A DNA stretch of 64,000 nt, taken from Escherichia coli. GTDB taxonomy: Bacteria > Pseudomonadota > Gammaproteobacteria > Enterobacterales > Enterobacteriaceae. The stretch lies in the NCBI RefSeq assembly GCF_001677475.2, contig NZ_CP015229.1, one strand, 5' to 3'. How positions within the stretch are numbered: position 1 is the stretch's first letter; each line of letters starts with the position of its first letter. Under the pieces are notes generated by a model that was not told where the DNA came from, did no database searches, and saw nothing but the letters and a program-made list of their open reading frames with translations. The position numbers and the translations under genes were made by a program. Shown here one piece after another: positions 9,264-54,458 of the stretch.

Positions 9264-10349
9264 TTAAATACTGGCAATACTCTCACGCAAAATCCGCAGC
9301 ACCGTCTCTTCACCGCTGCGATTTGGGTTAATACGAATCGCGTAATGTTCGAGTTGCGGATTCGCCTGGCGAAACGTTCCGGAAAGGCGATAAAAAAGCG
9401 GCGGGATCTCATATTTCGACTCTGCACCAACCGGGTAAGGCAAGGCACCGCGCTTTTGCGCCTCTTCCAGTACTCTGGCGGCAATCGGCTGATGAAACTC
9501 CACAATCAACACCTTCGACTGTGCATTGGCAATCACCGCGCTTTTCACGTCCGCCACTGCGCCACCGTTAAGTAAAGCCAGCAACCGTTCAGATACCCCC
9601 GCCTGCACCGCGTGCATCACTGGCGCAAACACCAGCCCACGCAAGACTTCCAACGCCTGCGCGCCCTGAATCTGGCTGCCGCCGGAGTAAAGCGTGGCGC
9701 GAATACGGTTGATAACATCAGCATCGCCTACCACCGCGCCAACACCCTCTGGCCCAAATAGCTTGAAGCAGGAAAAAGTCGAGACATTCGCCCCGCATTC
9801 GCAGCCGATTCGCGCTACCTTCATCACCGCATAGTTGTCATCGGTTAAGGCTGGAACACTTGCCGCGCGCAACGTTGCCAGCACATCTGCCAGCACATAG
9901 CTATCCTGCGGCTGCTGGCGCGTATGCTGCACCAGCGCGGCATCTGGTTGTTGCTCGTCGACAACCTGCTTCAGTGCCGACAGGTCATTGAAATCAGCAG
10001 TGATAAGCGTCAGCCCCATCTGCTCAATAATGACCTGAGTCGTCGGGTAAACCGGCGCGTCATGCACCAGAAGACGCTGCCCCGGTTTGAGCAAAACCGC
10101 CAACGCCGCACGAATCGCTCCAGTACCCGCGCCCTGCACCAGCGCCGCAGCCTGTGCGTGAAATGCATCAGCCAGCACCTGTTCCACACGCTGGGTAATG
10201 CGCGGTTGATTCAGTCCCGGCGTTAAGCCTAAATCACCGCCAGCAAGAAACTCGCTGCCGGGAAAATGGCGGCAAATCGTGTCCACCAGCGCAAACTGCT
10301 TTTGCTGCGCCTCAATAAGCGTCAGGCTTTGCAGAGGAAACGTCTTCAT
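9264..10349 (-). CDS. yhfS: Uncharacterised putative PLP-dependent enzyme
   Basis: 361-aa ORF; recognised as YhfS by sequence and position; first gene (3'-most) of the php/yhf cluster. Confidence 0.8.
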   Translation of the reverse strand: MKTFPLQSLTLIEAQQKQFALVDTICRHFPGSEFLAGGDLGLTPGLNQPRITQRVEQVLADAFHAQAAALVQGAGTGAIRAALAVLLKPGQRLLVHDAPVYPTTQVIIEQMGLTLITADFNDLSALKQVVDEQQPDAALVQHTRQQPQDSYVLADVLATLRAASVPALTDDNYAVMKVARIGCECGANVSTFSCFKLFGPEGVGAVVGDADVINRIRATLYSGGSQIQGAQALEVLRGLVFAPVMHAVQAGVSERLLALLNGGAVADVKSAVIANAQSKVLIVEFHQPIAARVLEEAQKRGALPYPVGAESKYEIPPLFYRLSGTFRQANPQLEHYAIRINPNRSGEETVLRILRESIASI

Positions 10350-10360
10350 AGGTGCCTTCC

Positions 10361-11665
10361 TTAAGCTGGAACAAACAGACCAAGCCAGTAAAGAACATTC
10401 AGCAGAATACCGGTGATCATTACTGCCACGACCGGTGCCGCCATTTTCTGTACCGGACGGCCCAGGGATTCGTTGAAGAAGTAAATGGCAACCGCGATAG
10501 AGAATCCGGTATAATCCGCCATTTTAATTGCTGCGAAAATCGAACCGACCAGCAGCGCCACTTCCATCAGCATATTCATGGCGTTACGGATGTTATCCGA
10601 CGCATTACGCACCGACGGATAGCGCCCCAGCCATTTGCCAATCGAACGAAGCAGTAAGACTTCCGCCGAAATAACCACTGCGCCTAATACCGCTGCAACC
10701 ATCGGATTCGGCGAGAGATAGCCCACCGCATAAACAAAGGTAAAGCCCGCAACTGCATACACGCCAGTGGCTAACGCCGTGGTGGCAATCAACGGCACAA
10801 ACCCCAGTCCGCGCATAAATTCTGCCAGAGCCGCCTGATTAATCAGCGTTTGCGATTGTTCCGGCGTTACGCCTGCGGAATATGCTTTCTCCAGTGTGAA
10901 GATCGAAACTTCGCTACCAGCAAAAATCTTCATGCTGGCAACGGCGGCAATCAATGCTCCCACGATGGCGATATACGGTAAGTTTTTGATAATCCGCGAC
11001 GTGCGTTCTTCAAACACCGAAAGCCCGCTGGCATCAATGTCATTTTCATCACGATGACGCAAGTCGTGAGTTATCGCGATCCCCAGCAGCATCACCATGC
11101 CAATAAAGATTTCGATGGATTCAGGGTTAAGATGTGGGAAATAGCGCACGACGACCACACGGGTCATCAGTACCACCACGGCGGCGATCAGACTTTGCTT
11201 CCAGCCAAACTGGTAGAAAATCGCCACCAGCGGGAACAGTGCAAAAGCTGAAACCACCGGCGAGCTTAATTCCCCCAGGCTACCTAATACATCCACCGGT
11301 AGCGCGGTCAGCAGCTGGTTTACCGGCAACAGGCAAGTAAGGATCTACACGCCCCAGATAGCGCCAAGACCAAACGCCATCAGGCTGTTTATCGCCAGTA
11401 CGCCGAGGATATCGGTAGGAAGAAAGAGTAACCATGCGTTGAGCAGCCCGGTTTTCAGGGTAAACGAGATCCCCACCGAGGCCACAAAACCAATGCTCAG
11501 ACCAAAAGCGATACTCCCCGCCTCGCGACGGTTCATATAGCCTTCAATCAGTTGCGGCAGGATCGGGCGGATACCGTCATGAAAAACGGCCGCCGAGCGA
11601 TGCGCCAGAAGCGATGTCATACCCGTCAGGCACGCCACCACGATAATCTGAATATACAGATCCAT
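10361..11665 (-). pseudogene. yhfT: Putative inner-membrane transporter YhfT interrupted by an in-frame TAG stop
   Basis: Two same-frame ORFs (11345-11665, 106 aa; 10361-11329, 322 aa) separated by TAG (rev-comp of cta at 11345-11347) plus 5 sense codons; 106+1+5+322 = 434 codons, the length I recall for intact YhfT. Confidence 0.6.
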
Positions 11666-11676
11666 AGTCGTGCCTT

Positions 11677-12030
11677 TTATTTCAGATGGTTAATCAGCAT
11701 CGGAATCGCGTGTTCGACATGCTCAACGGAAAGCCCAAACGCCACTTTCCCTTCGGCGATCATTTTGGCGATATGTTCGTCTTTCGCTTTAATGCCTGGT
11801 TTGGCAATGGTGCAACTTTTGTTATAGCCAATCACCGCGATGGCAATCGACAATGCCGCGCCCGCACCGGTATTACACGCGCCGATGTAGTAATCCAGTT
11901 GCCCGGATTTCACTTTCATTGCCGCTTCCATGTCGTTGTGAATGAAAACTTCAAAACGGCCAGGAGCCGTCGCTTCAATGGTTTTTTTAATCTGCTCACG
12001 CTGTAAGCCTGCAACACCAATCTTTTTCAT
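11677..12030 (-). CDS. yhfU: Uncharacterised protein YhfU (117 aa)
   Basis: Track ORF 11677-12069; start trimmed to MKKIGVAGL; tightly spaced with php and yhfT. Confidence 0.75.
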   Translation of the reverse strand: MKKIGVAGLQREQIKKTIEATAPGRFEVFIHNDMEAAMKVKSGQLDYYIGACNTGAGAALSIAIAVIGYNKSCTIAKPGIKAKDEHIAKMIAEGKVAFGLSVEHVEHAIPMLINHLK

Positions 12031-12040
12031 GAGTCTGTCC

Positions 12041-12919
12041 TTATTGGAAAAATTGAGAGGGAGTTTCACGTAACATCACATCCACATCGGCCTGACTGAA
12101 TCCTGACTGGCGCAATTGCGGAATAAAGGTGGTCAATAAATAGTCATAGCCATAACCACCGTTGGCTTTTAAATGGGAGCGGCGCGTAATATCCATCGAC
12201 AGCATGACGCGGTTCAGCAACCCACGGTCGCGTAGCGCATGAAGCATCGCAATACGCATTTCGTCCGGGTAGTAACTGTTCTTACCAATGGTGTCGAACT
12301 GCACATACGCGCCGAGATCGATCATCTTCAAAATGTTGTCGAGGTTGTCTTTCAGATCGCAGTGACCAACGGTGACGCGCGAAAGATCAACTCCGTGGGC
12401 TTGCAGTAGCGCCAGTTGTTCCAGACCCATGGTGCTAAAAGAGGTATGCGTGGAGATCGGACGTCCGGTCTGGTTATGTGCCAGCGCGGCGGCAATAAAC
12501 ACCTTCTCTTCCAGCGGCGTAATCTTCCCTTCGCTGGAGCCGATCTCCGCGATGATCCCGGCTTTCAGCTCCGTGCCATCGATACCCTGTTCAATTTCAT
12601 CGACCATCTCCTGCGCCAGTTCCTGCACGCTGCGGGTCGCCACATGTTGCGGGAAAAACGCGTCCTGGTAATAACCGGTACAGGCCACCACGTTGATCCC
12701 GGTTTCGCGCATTACATCGAGCATAAATTGCGCATTGCGCCCCATATAACGGTTGGTCATCTCAATCACATTACGCACGCCCTGGGCCATCAGGTCGTTC
12801 ATCTCCTGGCAAATGAACGCATACTGATCAAGGCGGCAGTCCACGTTGTTTTTAAAGCCTGAGAGATCAATATGCAGATGCTCATGGGCGAGGGTGTAAC
12901 CCGTCGGATCAAAACTCAT
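12041..12919 (-). CDS. php: Phosphotriesterase homology protein (amidohydrolase-superfamily binuclear metal hydrolase)
   Basis: Track ORF 12041-12961; start trimmed to [21 protein letters not shown] (292 aa); HxH metal-binding motif visible at N-terminus. Confidence 0.85.
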
Positions 12920-14142
12920 AGGGTGTCTCCTGCAAACCGGAGGGAGGAAAGAAAAGAGCAACCATTTTGTGGCGGTGGCGCACGGAAAAATTCACACACG
13001 GTAGCCCCCACATCAGAAAGCGTGGTGCGCACACCGAGTTGCGTGTGGACCAGCCCTTGCTGATAAACCAGCACCGGCACCATTTCGCGGGTATGGTGGC
13101 TGTGACCGATTGTCGGATCGTTACCATGATCCGCCATCACGACCAGGCAATCATCTGGCTGCATCACCTCAACAAGCCGGGCAAGGTTTCGGTCAACGAC
13201 CTGCAAACGTTCGGCATAACGTGCGACGTCTTCTGCGTGACCAGCGAGGTCGGTTTCCTGGATATTGGTGCAAATAAACGCCGTCGGATGCGTGTTAAAT
13301 TCGTCGAGGGTGATATCCATAATCCGCTGGCTATCCACCAGGTTTTGCCAGCTCACGCCATAAGGATTGCTGGCAATATCCGCCACTTTCCCCACCAGCA
13401 CGGTTGGTACGCCCACTTCATACAGTTTTTGTGGCACCTGCACTTTATCATCGACACCGTAGCCCATATGCACGACCTGGAAGCCGTTGTCATAAGCGCC
13501 TGAACGCGGCGCATTGATACCAATAAAGCGCCCTTCTTTGCTTTCTGCGGCATCGAGAATGCGTTGACTGTCGGGTAACAGGCCGCCAAATGTAATGACC
13601 CGACCGACCTGTACCTGCTCACGCACAATACGACCAATTTTGATTGCGTCGTCAAAAGAGATCACAGAGAGATTGGCGGTGATGTTATAGACCTGGCCTA
13701 AATCCGCCTCGAGATTATCGCCAATCGCAACCGCCTGATTGACCCACAGAAATTGCAGATCATCGCCACGGCGCTCCACCTGCCAGCCTGCGGAAACTAA
13801 TGCCTGCTCAACACGGTCAATCACATCGCGAAAGGGCATCCGCAGCGGCGGTAACGGGCGCGTGCCTAAAATTTCCTGATGCCCCATAAAGGTATCGCCA
13901 CCTTCATGTTGCAGCTCTGCCACGCCCCAGGTTGCGGAGTCTGACGGCTGCATATCTCCAGGCGCATAACCTAATGCGTTGATTAGCCCCATTTTCTCCA
14001 GCATTGGTAGCTGCAAATGCGGCAACTGGCTCAGGATGTGACCACAGGTATTTGCCCCGGCATCCTGCGGACGCACCAACGTGACATCTTTCATTGCCCC
14101 TACGCCAAAGCTATCAATCACTAACACCACAAATCGCGCCAT
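12916..14142 (-). CDS. yhfW: Uncharacterised phosphopentomutase-like metalloenzyme
   Basis: 408-aa ORF; stop overlaps php start; contains ADHGNDPT motif typical of phosphopentomutase/alkaline-phosphatase superfamily. Confidence 0.8.
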
Positions 14143-15305
14143 TACGCCTCCAGAGGGTTGCCGAGGCTGTCATAACGACCCACAATCTCTGCCGCGCCAC
14201 GCTGAATACCAGACACCAGCACCACATCGCTACGGGTGACAAAAATCTGCGTGCGAAAACAGAGCACCACTGCACTGCTTACCGGATGCTCACCTGCCAG
14301 CGGCAGGGTGTAGTCGATACCGCTGTCATCCACGGCTTTGAGATATGTTTCAGTCACGCTTTGATTCTCTGGCGTAAACACCAACGCATGTTGCGCATGA
14401 CCACGACGGTAATAACCGCCGCCGTAGCAGTAGCTGTCACCACGGAAGTGATGGGAAATTTCGCTCAGCCAAAGCATCGCGATACGTTCAGGCTGGTCTC
14501 CCTGCTGGTTTACCGGAATCGTCCCCGTCAGTGCATGACCGGGTTCGGCATGAGTCACACCGTATTCCGCCAGTAATGGCAGCGAAGTGCAGCTGGTCGC
14601 TGAAGGCGCGTTCAGTTGCTCAATCGCAATACCAGATTTCGCCAGTTGATCCCGTACCTGTATCAGCGTGTGAAGATTCGGTGTCGGCAAAACTTTCCCG
14701 GCAGCCTCATCCCAAAGCAGGCAAGGGAAATGGGTTAGTCCGGCTAAATGCAGCCCCGGCAGTTTCTTAATTTCAGCAACCACCTCGTGCAGCGAATGCT
14801 GTACAAAACCGCTCTCCTGCCCCGGATAAAGAAAATCATCGTCGCTATAAACTTTGAGCAGCACAGACTGGATTCGCCCGGCCTTCACCGCCGCCGCAGA
14901 AACTTCCCGCGCTTTGTCGAGAGTAAACACGGTGATGACGTCGGTGCCCTGTTCAACGGCGTCAGCAACCTGATGACAAGGGATTTGTACCAGATGCCCC
15001 TGATGCGCCACCGGCAAACCAGCGCGGCGCATGACTCGCGCCTCTTTGTAATCCACCGCCACAATGCCGCTGTAGCCCAATGCCAGCAGTTTTTCCGCCA
15101 GCCACGGATTACGACCGAATTGTTTGGTCATCAGATACAGTTCAATGCCGTAAAGCCGTGCCGTCTCAATCAGCCGCTTACCGTTTTCCAGTATCTGATC
15201 CACGTCGATCACCCAGCTGTCCGGGGCGATCTTGCCCTGCTGCCACAGGCTTAGTGCGGCGGAAATCAGCGCCGGGTTCTGGCGTTTCAATGCTTCTACA
15301 AACAT
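14142..15305 (-). CDS. yhfX: Uncharacterised alanine-racemase-like (PLP fold type III) protein
   Basis: 387-aa ORF; 1-nt overlap with yhfW start; recognised as YhfX. Confidence 0.8.
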
Positions 15306-15388
15306 CTTGTTGCCTCGTTTCTGTTCCTTGAGTTAAATATTCATTTTTTTGAATATTTAGGTTGTGCGACGTGGATTTGTCGGGAGCT

Positions 15389-15751
15389 TCAAACCTCTTC
15401 GTTAGCAGCCATCCATAATCCATAAAGGTTGGCCAGCAAATAGCCTTCTTCACACGGGTTAACTTCCAATGCGAATTCCTTCAACAACACCTGATGCAAT
15501 TGCACAACGGCTTGCCAGTGGCTGGATTGCGCCAGCTCTGCCAGCAACTCGTTATCCAGTGGCTCAATTTCTTCACCACGGCGACTGCGCATAAGTGCAC
15601 TCGCCATATGTGTCATCGCCATCGTTCCTTGCTCACTGCGCACCGGCAGATGGCACTCTTTTTCCAGTACGTTGACGACCTGCATCATGCCTTTGCAGAT
15701 GTCCTTATCGATGACCCCTGCATCGCAAAGCAGGTTGAGTCTGGTTTCCAT
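15389..15751 (-). CDS. yhfY: Uncharacterised protein YhfY (120 aa)
   Basis: Track ORF 15389-15871; start trimmed to METRLNLLCDAG. Confidence 0.7.
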   Translation of the reverse strand: METRLNLLCDAGVIDKDICKGMMQVVNVLEKECHLPVRSEQGTMAMTHMASALMRSRRGEEIEPLDNELLAELAQSSHWQAVVQLHQVLLKEFALEVNPCEEGYLLANLYGLWMAANEEV

Positions 15752-15767: not shown

Positions 15768-16673
15768 TTAATAACTGGGTTCCTGTTCCCCACTGACCAC
15801 TCGTTGTTGATGGGCAAGCAGGGCCTGTTTATCAACAACTGCACGCAGCAATTGTTGCATTGGGTAATCATCGACTCGCGTCAGGACCACGGCTTCGGTG
15901 GCCTGTAAAAATCGCGGATCGTCTGTGAGCGGCGTCGCTTCTAATCCCAGCATGGTCAGTTCGTTTTCCGCCACCACGTTCCAGATCACCGCATCAACAT
16001 CGCCTTTAACAATGCGTTGTAAACTCTCGTGATAAGAGAGATCGACACGTTCCACATCACTATCGCCAAAAAAGACATCGGTCATGATTTTCTGATCCGC
16101 CGAACGGTTATCCAGCCCCACGCGCTTCACGTTTGCGGACTCGCCTTTACGGCATATCAACTGGTGTTCGCCAACGTAGGTGTGCGGCCCCAATTCCAGC
16201 GCGAGGCATAACCCTTTTTGCGTGAGATAACTTTCCGCCGCCAGTCGGGAAACCACCGCCATGTCATACACGCCGTTAAGTAAACACTCCACGCGAATAT
16301 CCGCGCCGCGCATATGCGCATAGTAAAAAGGAATGCCATCAAACTGGGCTTTCAATCCGCTCGCTAAACCTTCGTACAAGCGGGTATAGGGCAAAGGCAT
16401 CGCACATACCACGTTGTTGATATCCACATGGCTCAGCAATGCTTTGTTATCCATCTCGACCAGATAACTGCCATTGCGCCCACGGCGTTCAATCCGTATC
16501 GCTCCGCTTGATTCCAGTGTTTTCAACGCTGCCTGCGTCAGGCCAACGGATGAACGGCATTCAGTTGCCAGCTCATCTATGGTTTTCAACCTATTACCGC
16601 ATTTTTCACCCAACAAATAACGGGCCAGCGTCGTGATAACGACGCCTTCTTTTTTGATAAACGTTCGACGCAT
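15768..16673 (-). CDS. yhfZ: Uncharacterised putative regulator YhfZ (N-terminal HTH-like region)
   Basis: 301-aa ORF; first gene of the yhfZ-to-yhfS co-directional cluster; AT-rich promoter region with palindrome upstream. Confidence 0.75.
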   Translation of the reverse strand: MRRTFIKKEGVVITTLARYLLGEKCGNRLKTIDELATECRSSVGLTQAALKTLESSGAIRIERRGRNGSYLVEMDNKALLSHVDINNVVCAMPLPYTRLYEGLASGLKAQFDGIPFYYAHMRGADIRVECLLNGVYDMAVVSRLAAESYLTQKGLCLALELGPHTYVGEHQLICRKGESANVKRVGLDNRSADQKIMTDVFFGDSDVERVDLSYHESLQRIVKGDVDAVIWNVVAENELTMLGLEATPLTDDPRFLQATEAVVLTRVDDYPMQQLLRAVVDKQALLAHQQRVVSGEQEPSY

Positions 16674-16702
16674 AATATATTTTCAATAAAATGAATGTTT
16701 AT

Positions 16703-16722
16703 ATCTTCATTAAAATGAAGAT
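16703..16722. promoter_or_regulatory. Near-perfect 20-bp palindrome in the yhfZ upstream region (candidate operator)
   Basis: atcttcatt-aa-aatgaagat, about 30 bp upstream of the yhfZ start codon. Confidence 0.4.
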
Positions 16723-16791
16723 AAGTGGCAACTGTGAGATGTGGAAACGGCGAGGCGCTTCACATTTTTTCGGATTATTGCAAATGAGGAT

Positions 16792-16817
16792 AAAAAAACC
16801 GGGTTTCCCCGGTTTTT
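16792..16817. terminator. Bidirectional intrinsic terminator downstream of trpS
   Basis: aaaaaaa-ccggg-tttc-cccgg-ttttt: stem-loop flanked by A-run and T-run, 15 bp past the trpS stop. Confidence 0.65.
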
Positions 16818-16832
16818 GGCATTAATGTTAAA

Positions 16833-17837
16833 TTACGGCTTCGCCACAAAACCAATCGCTTCGTACACCGCTTTTAGCGTACGGGAAGCGTGTGCGCTGG
16901 CTTTTTCCGCGCCATCTTTCATCACCTGTTGCAGGAAGGCTTCGTCATTGCGGAAACGGTGATAGCGTTCCTGCAATTCAGTCAGCATACCGGAAACGGC
17001 ATCAGCCACTTCGCCTTTCAGATGACCATACATCTTGCCTTCGAACTGTTTTTCCAGTTCCGGGATGCTCTGGCCCGTTACCGCAGAAAGGATATCCAGC
17101 AGGTTGGAAACGCCCGCTTTGTTCTGCACATCGTAGCGAACTACCGGCGGCTCGTCGGAGTCAGTGACCGCGCGTTTGATTTTCTTCACTACCGATTTCG
17201 GATCTTCCAGCAGGCCGATAACGTTATTGCGGTTATCGTCAGACTTGGACATCTTCTTGGTCGGCTCCAGCAGCGACATTACGCGCGCGCCAGATTTCGG
17301 AATAAACGGCTCCGGCACCTTAAAGATCTCACCATACAGCGCGTTGAAACGCTGAGCGATATCGCGGCTCAGTTCCAGGTGCTGTTTCTGGTCTTCACCC
17401 ACAGGTACCAGATTAGTTTGATACAGCAGGATGTCCGCAGCCATCAGCACCGGATAGTCAAACAGACCAGCGTTGATGTTCTCGGCATAACGCGCAGATT
17501 TATCTTTAAACTGCGTCATGCGGCTCAGTTCGCCGAAGTAGGTATAGCAGTTCAGTGCCCAGCCTAACTGCGCATGTTCCGGTACGTGGGACTGAACAAA
17601 AATGGTGCTTTTCTCAGGATCGATACCACAAGCCAGATACAAGGCCAGCGTATCCAGCGTCGCTTTACGCAGCTTCTGTGCATCCTGGCGCACGGTGATC
17701 GCGTGTTGGTCAACGATACAGTAAATGCAATGGTAGTCATCCTGCATGTTTACCCACTGACGCAGCGCACCCATGTAGTTACCAATGGTCAATTCACCTG
17801 AGGGCTGTGCGCCACTAAAAACGATGGGCTTAGTCAT
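16833..17837 (-). CDS. trpS: Tryptophan--tRNA ligase
   Basis: 334-aa ORF starting [21 protein letters not shown]; class I aaRS with KMSKS motif (KMSKS present). Confidence 0.95.
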
Positions 17838-19275: not shown

Positions 19276-20112
19276 TTATTTTTTCGCGGGTGAAACGACT
19301 CCTGGTTTGTACAAAGCCAGCAGTTCGTCCACCTTTTTACGTGTGCCGCCGTTGCTGCTTATACTGCGTCGAACTTTGACGACATGCAATTTTGCGCGCT
19401 GATACCACTCACGCGTTAACATCGTATCGTGATTGGAGATCAGCACAGGAATATGGCGATCAACCAGACCTTCGGCGATCTCCGCCAGATGCGCTTGTTG
19501 TTCAAGCGTAAAACTGTTTGTGTGATACGCCGTAAAGTTGGCGGTCGCAGACAGCGGTGCATAAGGCGGATCGCAATAGACGACGGATGCATCATCTGCG
19601 CGCGCCATGCTATCGGCGTAAGACTCACAATAGAAAAAGGCATTCTGCGCTTTTTCAGCGAAGTGATACAACTCTGCTTCCGGGAAATAGGGTTTTTTGT
19701 AGCGGCCAAACGGCACGTTAAACTCACCGCGCAGATTGTAACGACACAGGCCGTTGTAACCGTAGCGGTTCAAATATAAAAACAGTACCGCCCGACGGAA
19801 CGGATCCTGGCTTTTGTTGAACTCTTCGCGGAACTGATAGTAAACCTCGGCGCAATTTGTTTCGGGAACAAACAGCTCGCGTGCGGCCTGTACGTACTCA
19901 TCAGTACGCATTTTCACAATGTTATAGAGACTGATCAGGTCGCTATTGATATCGGCAAGGATATAACGAGAAAAGTCGGTGTTGAGAAACACCGACCCGG
20001 CACCTACAAAAGGCTCAACCAGACATTCGCCCTTGGGCAAATGCCGTTTAATATCATCAAGCAGGGGATACTTGCCCCCTGCCCACTTCAAAAAAGCGCG
20101 ATTTTTCTTCAT
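19276..20112 (-). CDS. dam: DNA adenine methyltransferase (GATC)
   Basis: 278-aa ORF; DPPY catalytic motif present ([11 protein letters not shown]). Confidence 0.95.
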
Positions 20113-29625: not shown

Positions 29626-29648
29626 AAAAGGCGCTTCGGCGCCTTTTC
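29626..29648 (+). terminator. Intrinsic terminator downstream of mrcA
   Basis: aaaaa-ggcgc-ttcg-gcgcc-tttt hairpin 4 nt after the TGA stop. Confidence 0.7.
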
Positions 29649-34858: not shown

Positions 34859-34886
34859 TCCGGCAGAGAGGGCTCTGCCGGATTTT
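34859..34886 (+). terminator. Intrinsic terminator downstream of hslO
   Basis: 10-bp stem tccggcagag/ctctgccgga with loop aggg followed by tttt. Confidence 0.7.
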
Positions 34887-41553: not shown

Positions 41554-41649
41554 GGAAGAGTCTTAACCTCCTGCCGATGGCTGGCATTTTTGCCAGCCAG
41601 TCCGTATAACTATCCCCTGATTTTTGATCCGAAAAGATGAACTCAAACC

Positions 41650-52329: not shown

Positions 52330-52340
52330 TAACACTGACT

Positions 52341-52361
52341 GCCGGATGCATCGCATCCGGC
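52341..52361. terminator. Palindrome between convergent gntT and malQ (likely bidirectional terminator/REP-like)
   Basis: gccggatgc-atc-gcatccggc perfect 9-bp inverted repeat. Confidence 0.5.
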
Positions 52362-52376
52362 ATCAACCGCACCCTA

Positions 52377-54458
52377 CTACTTCTTCGCTGCCGCTCTGCG
52401 CCGTCTGTCCAAATCCTTCAGCAACTTGTTCACGCCATCATCGGCAAACATCGCCTCAAGCGTTGCGGAGAGCTTGCGCCGCCAGTTTTTATACTGGTAA
52501 CTGGTGCCGGGAATATTTACCGGTTCGGCCATATCCAGCCAGTCTTCCGGCTGTAGTCCTAACAGAGCACTGTTACTGTCGGCAATGTAGCGCTGCAAAC
52601 CACGGTTCAGCGTCGGCGTCATCGACATCAACGATGCCTTATGCCCGGCACGTTTTGGCAGACAACCATATTTATGCAGTGCATCCAGCAGCCCTTGCTT
52701 CGCCAGTTCGCGATCCTGATACAGACCGCGCAGTACCACTTCATCCGGATACAGGCCCAGAGTTTTGCCCAGCGTTAGATCCCCGCTCTCCCAGTAACCG
52801 CGTAGCGTAGGCAGGTCATGTGTCGCCGCAACCGCCATCGACTGCTCCGGATACGCTTTCGGTGCACGGAACGTCTTCTCGTGGTCGTTTTCGAAATAGA
52901 GCACTTTGTAGGAGTACACACCGCTGCTGCGCAGCTTACCGACAATCTCTACCGGTACGGTACCGAGATCTTCACCAATCACCATGCAGCGATGACGTTT
53001 ACTTTCGAGTGCCAGAATCGAGAGCAGATCATCCACCGGATAGTGTACATACGCGCCCTGATCTGCCGTCTCGCCATACGGTATCCACCACAAACGCAGC
53101 ATCGACATCACATGGTCAATTCGTAATGCGCCGCAGTTTTGCATATTGGCACGCAACAGCTCGATAAACGGTTCATAGGCACGCGCGGTGATGATATGCG
53201 GGTCCATTGGCGGCAATCCCCAGTTCTGCCCCAACGGGCCGAGGATATCCGGCGGTGCGCCAACCGACGCTTTCAGGCAATACAACTCCCGGTCGCACCA
53301 GGTTTCTGCTCCACCCTCTGCTACACCAACGGCCAGGTCACGATACAAGCCAATCGGCATTTCATAGCCCTGGCTTATCTCCCAGCAGTCGGCAAACTGG
53401 CTGTAAGCCAGCCACTGCAACCAGAGATAAAAATCGACGTCATCACGATGTTCTTCGCAGAACTGGCGCACTTCTGGTGAATCCACGTTCTGATACATCT
53501 CTGGCCATGCAGGCCAGCCCCAGCGCATTTCGTCCTCTTTCACTTGCTGGGCATGTAGTGCGTCAAACGCCGCCTGCCAGAACAGGCTGTCGCCTTGCTC
53601 TGCAACAAACTGGCGAAACGCGGCCATCTGTTCATCATCACGTTGCGCGAAACCTTTCCACGCCATTCGTAATGCTGTCATTTTTAGGGCGGTAACCGTG
53701 GAGTAATCGACCCAGTCGGCATCCCGCGCCTGTTGCAGCGTCTGTTGCGTGGTCGGCAACTTCCACCAGGCCTGAGCCTCTTCGCTAAGATGGAAATCTT
53801 CGACGGCGTTAACGTCGATATAAATCACATTCAGCCAACGGCGAGAAGACGGGCTGTATGGGCTGGCACTCTCCGGATTTGCCGGATAGAGCGCATGAAT
53901 CGGGTTCAGGCCGATGAACGACCCGCCACGTTTTGCCACATCCACCAGCATCGCTTTGAGATCGCCAAAATCCCCAATACCCCAGTTTTTTTCCGATCGC
54001 AGCGTATAAAGCTGAACGCAGGCACCCCACAGCTTTTGTTTATTCAGCAACGCCTGCGGTTCGTAACAGCGTTTCGGGGCGACAATCACCCGGCAATGCG
54101 CGCGCTGGTCGTCCTGGGTGAGTGTCAGCGTGTGATAACCTTCCGGCAGCTTCGTCGGTAGATTGAACGCTTTGCCCCCCGTTACATGGCCTTTGTACTG
54201 TGTTCCTTCTTCGGTGGTCAGCAGCCAGCTATATTCGCCGCTGCCCTCCACCACCATCGGCATTTTTTTGCCGCTGGTATAAACCATGACATTCGGGACT
54301 GGCGTTACCGCCACTTTCGTGGCGGTACGTTGATGCATCGCGTCAAGCAAACGCCGTTTGGTTTCGGCGCTAATCGACTGCGGTTTACCGTGGGCATTGA
54401 TGTAATTGGGGCTGATCCCCGCCGCCAGCGCGGCATTATCCAGACGTTTGCTTTCCAT
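52377..54458 (-). CDS. malQ: 4-alpha-glucanotransferase (amylomaltase)
   Basis: 693-aa ORF beginning MESKRLDNAALAAGI; 9-bp spacer from malP stop. Confidence 0.95.
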   Translation of the reverse strand: MESKRLDNAALAAGISPNYINAHGKPQSISAETKRRLLDAMHQRTATKVAVTPVPNVMVYTSGKKMPMVVEGSGEYSWLLTTEEGTQYKGHVTGGKAFNLPTKLPEGYHTLTLTQDDQRAHCRVIVAPKRCYEPQALLNKQKLWGACVQLYTLRSEKNWGIGDFGDLKAMLVDVAKRGGSFIGLNPIHALYPANPESASPYSPSSRRWLNVIYIDVNAVEDFHLSEEAQAWWKLPTTQQTLQQARDADWVDYSTVTALKMTALRMAWKGFAQRDDEQMAAFRQFVAEQGDSLFWQAAFDALHAQQVKEDEMRWGWPAWPEMYQNVDSPEVRQFCEEHRDDVDFYLWLQWLAYSQFADCWEISQGYEMPIGLYRDLAVGVAEGGAETWCDRELYCLKASVGAPPDILGPLGQNWGLPPMDPHIITARAYEPFIELLRANMQNCGALRIDHVMSMLRLWWIPYGETADQGAYVHYPVDDLLSILALESKRHRCMVIGEDLGTVPVEIVGKLRSSGVYSYKVLYFENDHEKTFRAPKAYPEQSMAVAATHDLPTLRGYWESGDLTLGKTLGLYPDEVVLRGLYQDRELAKQGLLDALHKYGCLPKRAGHKASLMSMTPTLNRGLQRYIADSNSALLGLQPEDWLDMAEPVNIPGTSYQYKNWRRKLSATLEAMFADDGVNKLLKDLDRRRRAAAKK

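Follow-up and report, generated by a model that had tools for sequence, protein, structure and literature searches.

The yhfS-yhfZ cluster and the YhfZ protein are among the E. coli genes without known function or regulation, and a palindrome in front of yhfZ raises the question whether it serves as the operator of a repressor that controls this cluster. In the 64,000-nucleotide stretch of E. coli DNA analysed here, referred to as the window, a 20-bp palindrome had been predicted at positions 16703-16722, about 30 bp upstream of the yhfZ start, as a candidate binding site of YhfZ or another repressor of the cluster. The sequence, which reads atcttcattaaaatgaagat, and its coordinates were confirmed, although the repeat extends by one base on each side: the full inverted repeat covers positions 16702-16723 and consists of the perfect 10-nt arms TATCTTCATT and AATGAAGATA around the 2-nt centre AA. 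Since yhfZ is the minus-strand ORF 15768-16673, the palindrome begins 30 nt upstream of the ATG, in accordance with the predicted distance. The window contains four perfect palindromes whose arms reach 10 nt or more and whose spacer does not exceed 4 nt, compared with 0.39 +/- 0.68 expected from first-order Markov sequences, and the remaining three are GC-rich hairpins, including the trpS terminator at 16794-16817. Further perfect palindromes with 9- to 10-nt arms were noted at 19975-19996, 29626-29647, 34859-34882, 41578-41599, 52340-52362 and 54306-54327; they are mostly GC-rich and probably represent terminators or REP-like elements. The candidate operator in front of yhfZ, designated O1, was assigned to positions 16700-16725, without strand, with the core TTCA-N6-TGAA at 16706-16719. 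As judged from the sequence comparisons described below, the functional unit appears to be this core together with its AT-rich flanking arms rather than the 2-nt-centred palindrome itself.

O1 is the distal member of two sites in the yhfZ promoter region. The original prediction had included a half-site, aaaatgaatg, about 15 bp further upstream; the distance of 15 nt was correct, but the sequence occupies positions 16688-16697 and is thus located downstream of O1 on the ATG-proximal side. Moreover, it is not a mere half-site but part of a second full dyad with the core TTCAATAAAATGAA at 16682-16695 and imperfect outer arms. This candidate operator O2 (16676-16701, no strand) ends 3 nt short of the yhfZ ATG, and its dyad repeats that of O1 at 18 of 20 positions as a direct repeat with a spacing of 24 nt from centre to centre. 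A third candidate operator, O3 (15334-15359, no strand), was detected in the yhfY-yhfX spacer, 29-54 nt upstream of the yhfX ATG; read on the minus strand, it consists of the perfect 10-nt arms TAAATATTCA and TGAATATTTA around the 6-nt centre AAAAAA. A scan of the window with a 26-nt symmetrised weight matrix (PWM) yielded exactly three sites above 12 bits, all of them in the yhf cluster, namely O3 with the top score of 38.1 bits, O1 with 35.2 bits and O2 with 33.7 bits. The matrix was built from the same sites that it scored, and the counts of the core pattern are the independent figures. TTCA-N6-TGAA is expected by chance about 1.2 times per 64 kb. A fourth core match in the window, at 53905, has a GC-rich centre and a score below 12 bits and was taken as a chance occurrence. 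The consensus sequence of the three putative operators is TTATMTTCA-N6-TGAAKATAA.

The original prediction had named a comparison of yhfZ upstream regions as a means of checking it. An alignment of 14 YhfZ orthologues was used to retrieve 80 loci, one per species, which span the Enterobacterales and Vibrionaceae from Escherichia to Vibrio and Photobacterium and reach down to 45-48% protein identity. With a threshold of at least 20 bits, a site was present upstream of yhfZ in 78 of these species-level loci, with the dyad kept at a fixed distance, and an internal site corresponding to O3 was detected in 75 of the 80 loci, i.e. in every locus of the Enterobacterales. In the 981 kb of these loci, the exact core TTCA-N6-TGAA matched 107 times within 60 nt upstream of yhfZ, 57 times at about +1200 to +1430 from the yhfZ start and only 12 times elsewhere. 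The downstream matches are mostly located in the yhfY-yhfX spacer, with a few near +1210 inside the yhfY coding sequence. The upstream cores occur at -46/-45/-44 and/or at -22/-25 relative to the ATG: the distal position is occupied in Escherichia, Citrobacter, Klebsiella, Trabulsiella, Buttiauxella, Cedecea, Serratia, Xenorhabdus and Providencia, the -22 site is kept in the Enterobacteriaceae and in Photorhabdus, and the Vibrio site is found at -25.

Several additional matches were recorded in individual lineages. Most Xenorhabdus loci (L054-L078) carry an extra weaker dyad, TATATCTTCAAAATATTGATAATATT, at about -149 from the yhfZ start and about 60 nt upstream of the CRP-like site described below, in a 450-nt spacer that is shared with a divergent alpha/beta-hydrolase gene. 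In Vibrio and Photobacterium (L080-L084), a motif match of 17-23 bits is kept at +1460 to +1530; it lies within the php coding sequence and was not counted as an operator. Stray sites 4.5-5 kb upstream in the Photorhabdus loci L039 and L045, and a weaker one of 19 bits in L041, were likewise not counted, as they are located between two convergent gene ends, which in L039 are those of a PTS IIC gene and a LuxR-type gene.

The presumed regulator YhfZ comprises 301 amino acids, with an N-terminal HTH_41 winged-helix domain (67 bits) and a C-terminal solute-binding-like domain, YhfZ_C (284 bits); the structure PDB 2OZZ covers residues 74-301. The protein matches NCBIfam NF041241 with 374 bits at a cut-off of 260. 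It carries the NCBI name 'GntR family'; nonetheless, the Pfam search of the window YhfZ gave no match to the GntR winged helix PF00392 at E <= 0.001, and weak precomputed matches to this domain were found in just two distant homologues. Among the products of the cluster, Pfam and NCBIfam recognised a DNA-binding domain in YhfZ alone. No binding site, regulon or function of YhfZ, and no binding site for its family, was found in the literature, although database-only predictions may exist.

A search of 1.84 billion representative proteins yielded 495 YhfZ-family clusters at E <= 1e-10, and contigs were recovered for nine distant members with 28-37% identity. Most of the longer contigs contain a cluster of the same type, comprising a PRD protein, DUF2620, YhfT, PTE and YhfS-like proteins. 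The core TTCA-N6-TGAA recurs on low-GC, Firmicute-like contigs whose YhfZ homologues show 33-35% protein identity. YhfZ proteins with a recognition helix starting with S-V-G-x-x-Q (E. coli, L085, L088, L090 and L094) are accompanied by the dyad TTCA-N6-TGAA, and those starting with x-R-G-T-x-Q (L086, L091, L092 and L093) by TACA-N6-TGTA, in each case 22-40 nt before the ATG of the regulator gene. The type of recognition helix and the type of half-site were therefore concordant in all nine lineages, a small sample in which the RGT group may represent a single clade. The contig L095, with an SRGT helix and a TACA-N6-TGTA dyad about 1 kb after the gene, was left out of this count because the context of its dyad is unclear. 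In the 981 kb of loci with the SVG-type helix, TACA-N6-TGTA occurs only 12 times. Since the motif changes together with the recognition helix of YhfZ, it is tied to YhfZ itself. Low-GC homologues also show further dyads, two at 2819-2989 of L088 and one at 1234-1259 of L090, in the interval that separates the yhfZ homologue from the PRD gene; these dyads mirror O3 of E. coli but are located one gene earlier.

The regulatory region of yhfZ is bounded by the trpS terminator on one side and by the yhfZ ATG on the other and thus covers about 120 nt. The trpS gene ends at 16833 on the same strand as yhfZ, and its intrinsic terminator hairpin (16794-16817, minus strand) is followed by a T-run and lies outside the operator system. 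Between the trpS stop codon and this terminator, K-12 contains an insert of about 130 nt and FORC_069 a different one of about 110 nt (loci L001 and L002); the window carries neither of them at 16818-16832. A CRP-like site, TGTGAAGCGCCTCGCC, is located on the minus strand at 16749-16764, centred 83.5 nt upstream of the yhfZ ATG, and deviates at two positions from TGTGA-N6-TCACA. A site with at most two mismatches is present in 66 of 76 loci, compared with 3.4% of random windows, and in 57 loci it is found at a fixed offset of 45 nt upstream of the O1 core. The site is also visible in the conservation footprint.

Directly 5' of O1, the minus strand contains the -35-like hexamer TTGCCA (16726-16731), whose role in a promoter is presumed; its TTG is kept across genera at -58 to -56, and K-12 has TTGCGC. 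The candidate -10 element GAAGAT (16703-16708, minus strand) coincides with the promoter-proximal half-site of O1 and was chosen only by its spacing of 17 nt from TTGCCA. With this element, transcription would start near 16695/16696, the CRP-like site would be centred at about -61, close to the -61.5 of class I CRP-dependent promoters, and O2 would extend over +1 to about +20. GAAGAT is a weak -10 sequence, and the alternative -10 element TATAAA (16698-16703) would result in a 22-nt spacer. A generic sigma-70 promoter scan did not report the TTGCCA/GAAGAT promoter; its only match on the minus strand, TAAACA-16-TATATT (16701-16674), was rejected as yhfZ promoter because the start would fall inside the ORF. 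No yhfZ start site was found in the supplements of the Cappable-seq paper. Vibrio deviates from the E. coli model in how the -35 and -10 elements are arranged with respect to the CRP-like site. Low-GC homologues with readable promoters show TTGACA-17-TAAACT, TTGACT-16-TAGAAT, TTGACA-17-TATAAC and TTGCAA-17-TAATAT, with the dyad covering about +1 to +30. This position just downstream of the -10 element suggests a repressor-type placement.

The promoter allele of the window is not that of K-12. The 72-nt promoter region is present in 5080 of 5426 complete E. coli genomes, at an identity of at least 99% in 1454 of them and of 80-90% in 2388, including K-12 with 83.3%; it is absent from the other 346 genomes. 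The whole yhfS-yhfZ cluster is missing from some E. coli, such as strain 122 (L004), in which frlR directly adjoins trpS. Alignments of seven E. coli alleles and of two other Escherichia species revealed little or no variation in the arms TTATCTTCA and TGAAG, in the proximal TTCA/TGAA and in the adjacent upstream TTG. In each dyad, the central six bases vary freely (TTTTAA, TTTTTA, AATTCA and AATTCC), and K-12 accordingly has 8-nt arms around a 6-nt centre. Twelve of the 72 promoter positions differ between K-12 and the window; six of these are located in the two N6 centres, and the two alleles agree throughout the 4-nt cores, the 8-nt arms of O1 and the TTG. The promoter region 16674-16745 is unusually polymorphic within E. 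coli, with differences between K-12 and the window both in the -35-like hexamer and in the O1 centre, and the promoter alleles may differ in expression between strains. The strain UPEC_U013 (L099) carries a 6-nt deletion of ATATAA between O1 and O2, equivalent to 16698-16703, which leaves a spacing of 18 nt instead of 24 nt between the two sites and cuts away the outer portion of one arm of O1.

Taken as a whole, the explanation of O1, O2 and O3 as operators of the cluster-encoded GntR-like regulator YhfZ is likely. The predicted role of the palindrome as an operator of YhfZ or another cluster repressor is supported by its conservation in 78 of 80 loci, by a recurrence restricted to the cluster and by the co-variation with the recognition helix, with binding itself being predicted. 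We infer the physical binding of YhfZ to the motif, and the position of the sites points to repression rather than activation. An unlikely variant of this explanation retains the sites as YhfZ operators and regards YhfZ as an activator or dual regulator that would act, for example, in a MerR-like manner by reshaping the over-long spacer of 22 nt between TTGCCA and TATAAA. It gains some weight from the location of O1 exactly between two conserved sequences, TTG and TATAAA/T, which are 22 nt apart in Escherichia and 20 nt apart in Serratia, and from the lack of a canonical promoter in the generic scan. However, the distance between TTG and TATAAA is inconstant among genera (22, 20 and 20 nt) and it is the 17-nt spacing to the half-site that is constant; moreover, the dyad lies downstream of the -10 element in the low-GC homologues with clear promoters, and the second site covers the leader beside the ATG.

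The binding of another protein to the dyad, either a global regulator or an AT-preferring nucleoid protein such as H-NS, Fis, IHF or an ArgR-like protein, is less probable still. The AT-richness of the sites would be compatible with such a protein, and the sequence ATTCA/TGAAT resembles the half-sites of ARG boxes, but the half-sites are everted relative to the ARG box, forming ATTCA-N6-TGAAT instead of TGAAT-N4-ATTCA. Furthermore, the motif is restricted to yhfZ clusters, accompanies the yhfZ homologues on low-GC contigs of Firmicute-like type and takes another form where their recognition helix differs, a behaviour that would be hard to assign to any other protein. A function of the palindrome as nucleic-acid hairpin, i.e. 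as a 5'-leader RNA structure, an attenuator or a cruciform, is very improbable. The perfect 10-nt arms can fold into a stem, with -11 kcal/mol for the 81-nt region, but this fold is no better than that of shuffled sequences (z = -1.3), the arms comprise only 8 nt in K-12 and a scan of Rfam gave no match. The terminator scan was silent at 16676-16725, where the stem is AT-rich and no T-run is present, and the palindrome was accordingly identified neither as an intrinsic terminator nor as a REP/BIME element. The sole variable arm pair (positions 6/21 of the 26-mer) is complementary in 13 of 33, 4 of 30 and 8 of 30 unique sites. Since the arm sequence is conserved and the variable pair is not kept complementary, the palindrome is to be regarded as a protein-binding site and not as a hairpin; the pattern corresponds to what a dimeric DNA-binding protein, rather than a structured RNA or a terminator, would leave. 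A survey from 2010 listed yhfZ among the genes preceded by BIME-type 'attenuators' (PMC2965389), which would speak for a hairpin, but this BIME is most likely the insert of about 130 nt near the trpS terminator of K-12, which is separate from the palindrome and is the only K-12 sequence that the window lacks in this comparison. Finally, a chance palindrome in AT-rich intergenic DNA has practically no probability left: short AT-rich palindromes are common and the core alone is expected about once in a window of this length, but the dyad is kept at a constant position in 78 of 80 species and occurs three times in one cluster, which refutes this explanation.

According to the preferred model of O1, O2 and O3 as YhfZ operators, a YhfZ dimer would bind each dyad via its N-terminal winged helix-turn-helix. 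O1 would fill the space between the TTGnnn hexamer and the probable -10 region, and O2 would lie over the probable transcription start and the short leader, so that occupancy of the two sites would shut off yhfZ-yhfY by autorepression. The position of O1 and O2 along with the CRP-like site suggests that autorepression is combined with activation by cAMP-CRP, whose binding at the conserved site 45 nt upstream of O1 would also be needed for expression. O3, located 1.34 kb downstream and before yhfX, would extend the control to yhfX-yhfW-php-yhfU-yhfT-yhfS. Since neither promoter-like nor terminator-like matches were found in the yhfY-yhfX spacer, O3 could serve either as a roadblock or as the partner site of a DNA loop. 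Release of the repressor would be brought about by a small molecule that occupies the solute-binding-like C-terminal domain, and the PRD protein YhfY might modulate this response. The distance of 24 bp between the centres of O1 and O2, which does not correspond to an integral number of helical turns, speaks against the model.

The genes that would be controlled in this way are arranged in a conserved order. The yhfY gene (15389-15751, minus strand) encodes a small protein with weak matches to the Pfam PRD domain (21.4 bits, below the cut-off of 23) and to TIGR03582, and it adjoins yhfZ in every mapped locus, following yhfZ except in Pluralibacter, where it precedes it. The genes behind O3, namely yhfX, yhfW, php, yhfU, yhfT and yhfS, occupy positions 9264-15305 on the minus strand, as deduced from ORFs, Pfam matches and synteny. 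The order in the Enterobacterales is yhfZ-yhfY-[O3]-yhfX-(yhfW)-php-yhfU-yhfT-yhfS, and that in Vibrio is rearranged. In the window, the 434-codon yhfT gene (10361-11665, minus strand) is split into two ORFs by an in-frame stop at codon 107 (11345-11347), and the transporter-like gene may be inactive in this strain.

A doubtful extension of the model combines YhfZ with the PRD-only YhfY in a two-protein switch, in which PTS phosphorylation of YhfY and a small molecule in YhfZ would jointly set the occupancy of the three operators, with a 1.3-kb repression loop over yhfZ-yhfY. If true, this switch would be a split, GntR-like counterpart of the single-chain PRD regulators and would control a catabolic island that is conserved from Firmicute-like low-GC organisms to Vibrio. 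Regardless of this extension, the operator motif provides a handle for finding the conditions of cluster expression, the inducer and the substrate, by means of three sites, a position in the recognition helix (V or R) that is predicted to determine specificity, and a probable input from CRP. It also allows the prediction of YhfZ-family regulons in other bacteria. The deduced regulatory logic of a local repressor combined with CRP would be conventional, but the analysis provides a family-wide motif and a proposed specificity rule for this uncharacterised regulator.

The proposed system resembles local repressors of the GntR family, such as FadR, GntR, PdhR, LldR, ExuR/UxuR and FrlR, which is encoded next door, in that an N-terminal winged-helix regulator would control its own gene and adjacent catabolic genes from a dyad operator of about 20-26 bp overlapping its own promoter. 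It differs from this family in the helix of YhfZ, which is of the HTH_41 type and not PF00392, and in the solute-binding-like C-terminus, which is not of the FadR, HutC, MocR or YtrA type. GntR-family operators are usually palindromes around GT-Nx-AC; TTCA-N6-TGAA lacks such a GT...AC core, and the homologues with RGT-type helices use TACA-N6-TGTA. The ARG boxes of ArgR (TGAAT-N4-ATTCA) and the MetR sites (TGAA-N5-TTCA) contain the same TGAA/TTCA tetramers in AT-rich surroundings, but the half-sites of the YhfZ motif face the other way and the spacing differs. The PRD regulators, i.e. antiterminators of the BglG/LicT type and activators of the MtlR/LicR type, come to mind, as the PRD protein YhfY is encoded directly after yhfZ in nearly all loci; unlike these regulators, YhfY lacks any domain for binding RNA or DNA, its PRD match is weak, and an influence of YhfY on YhfZ activity is speculation. 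The arrangement of two operators at the promoter, a remote one within or beyond the first genes and a CRP-type site upstream is also found in the lac (O1, O2 and O3), gal (OE and OI) and deo (O1, O2 and O3) systems. In this comparison, which considers the layout of the sites only, the distance of 1.34 kb to O3 exceeds those in lac and gal and comes closer to that in deo.
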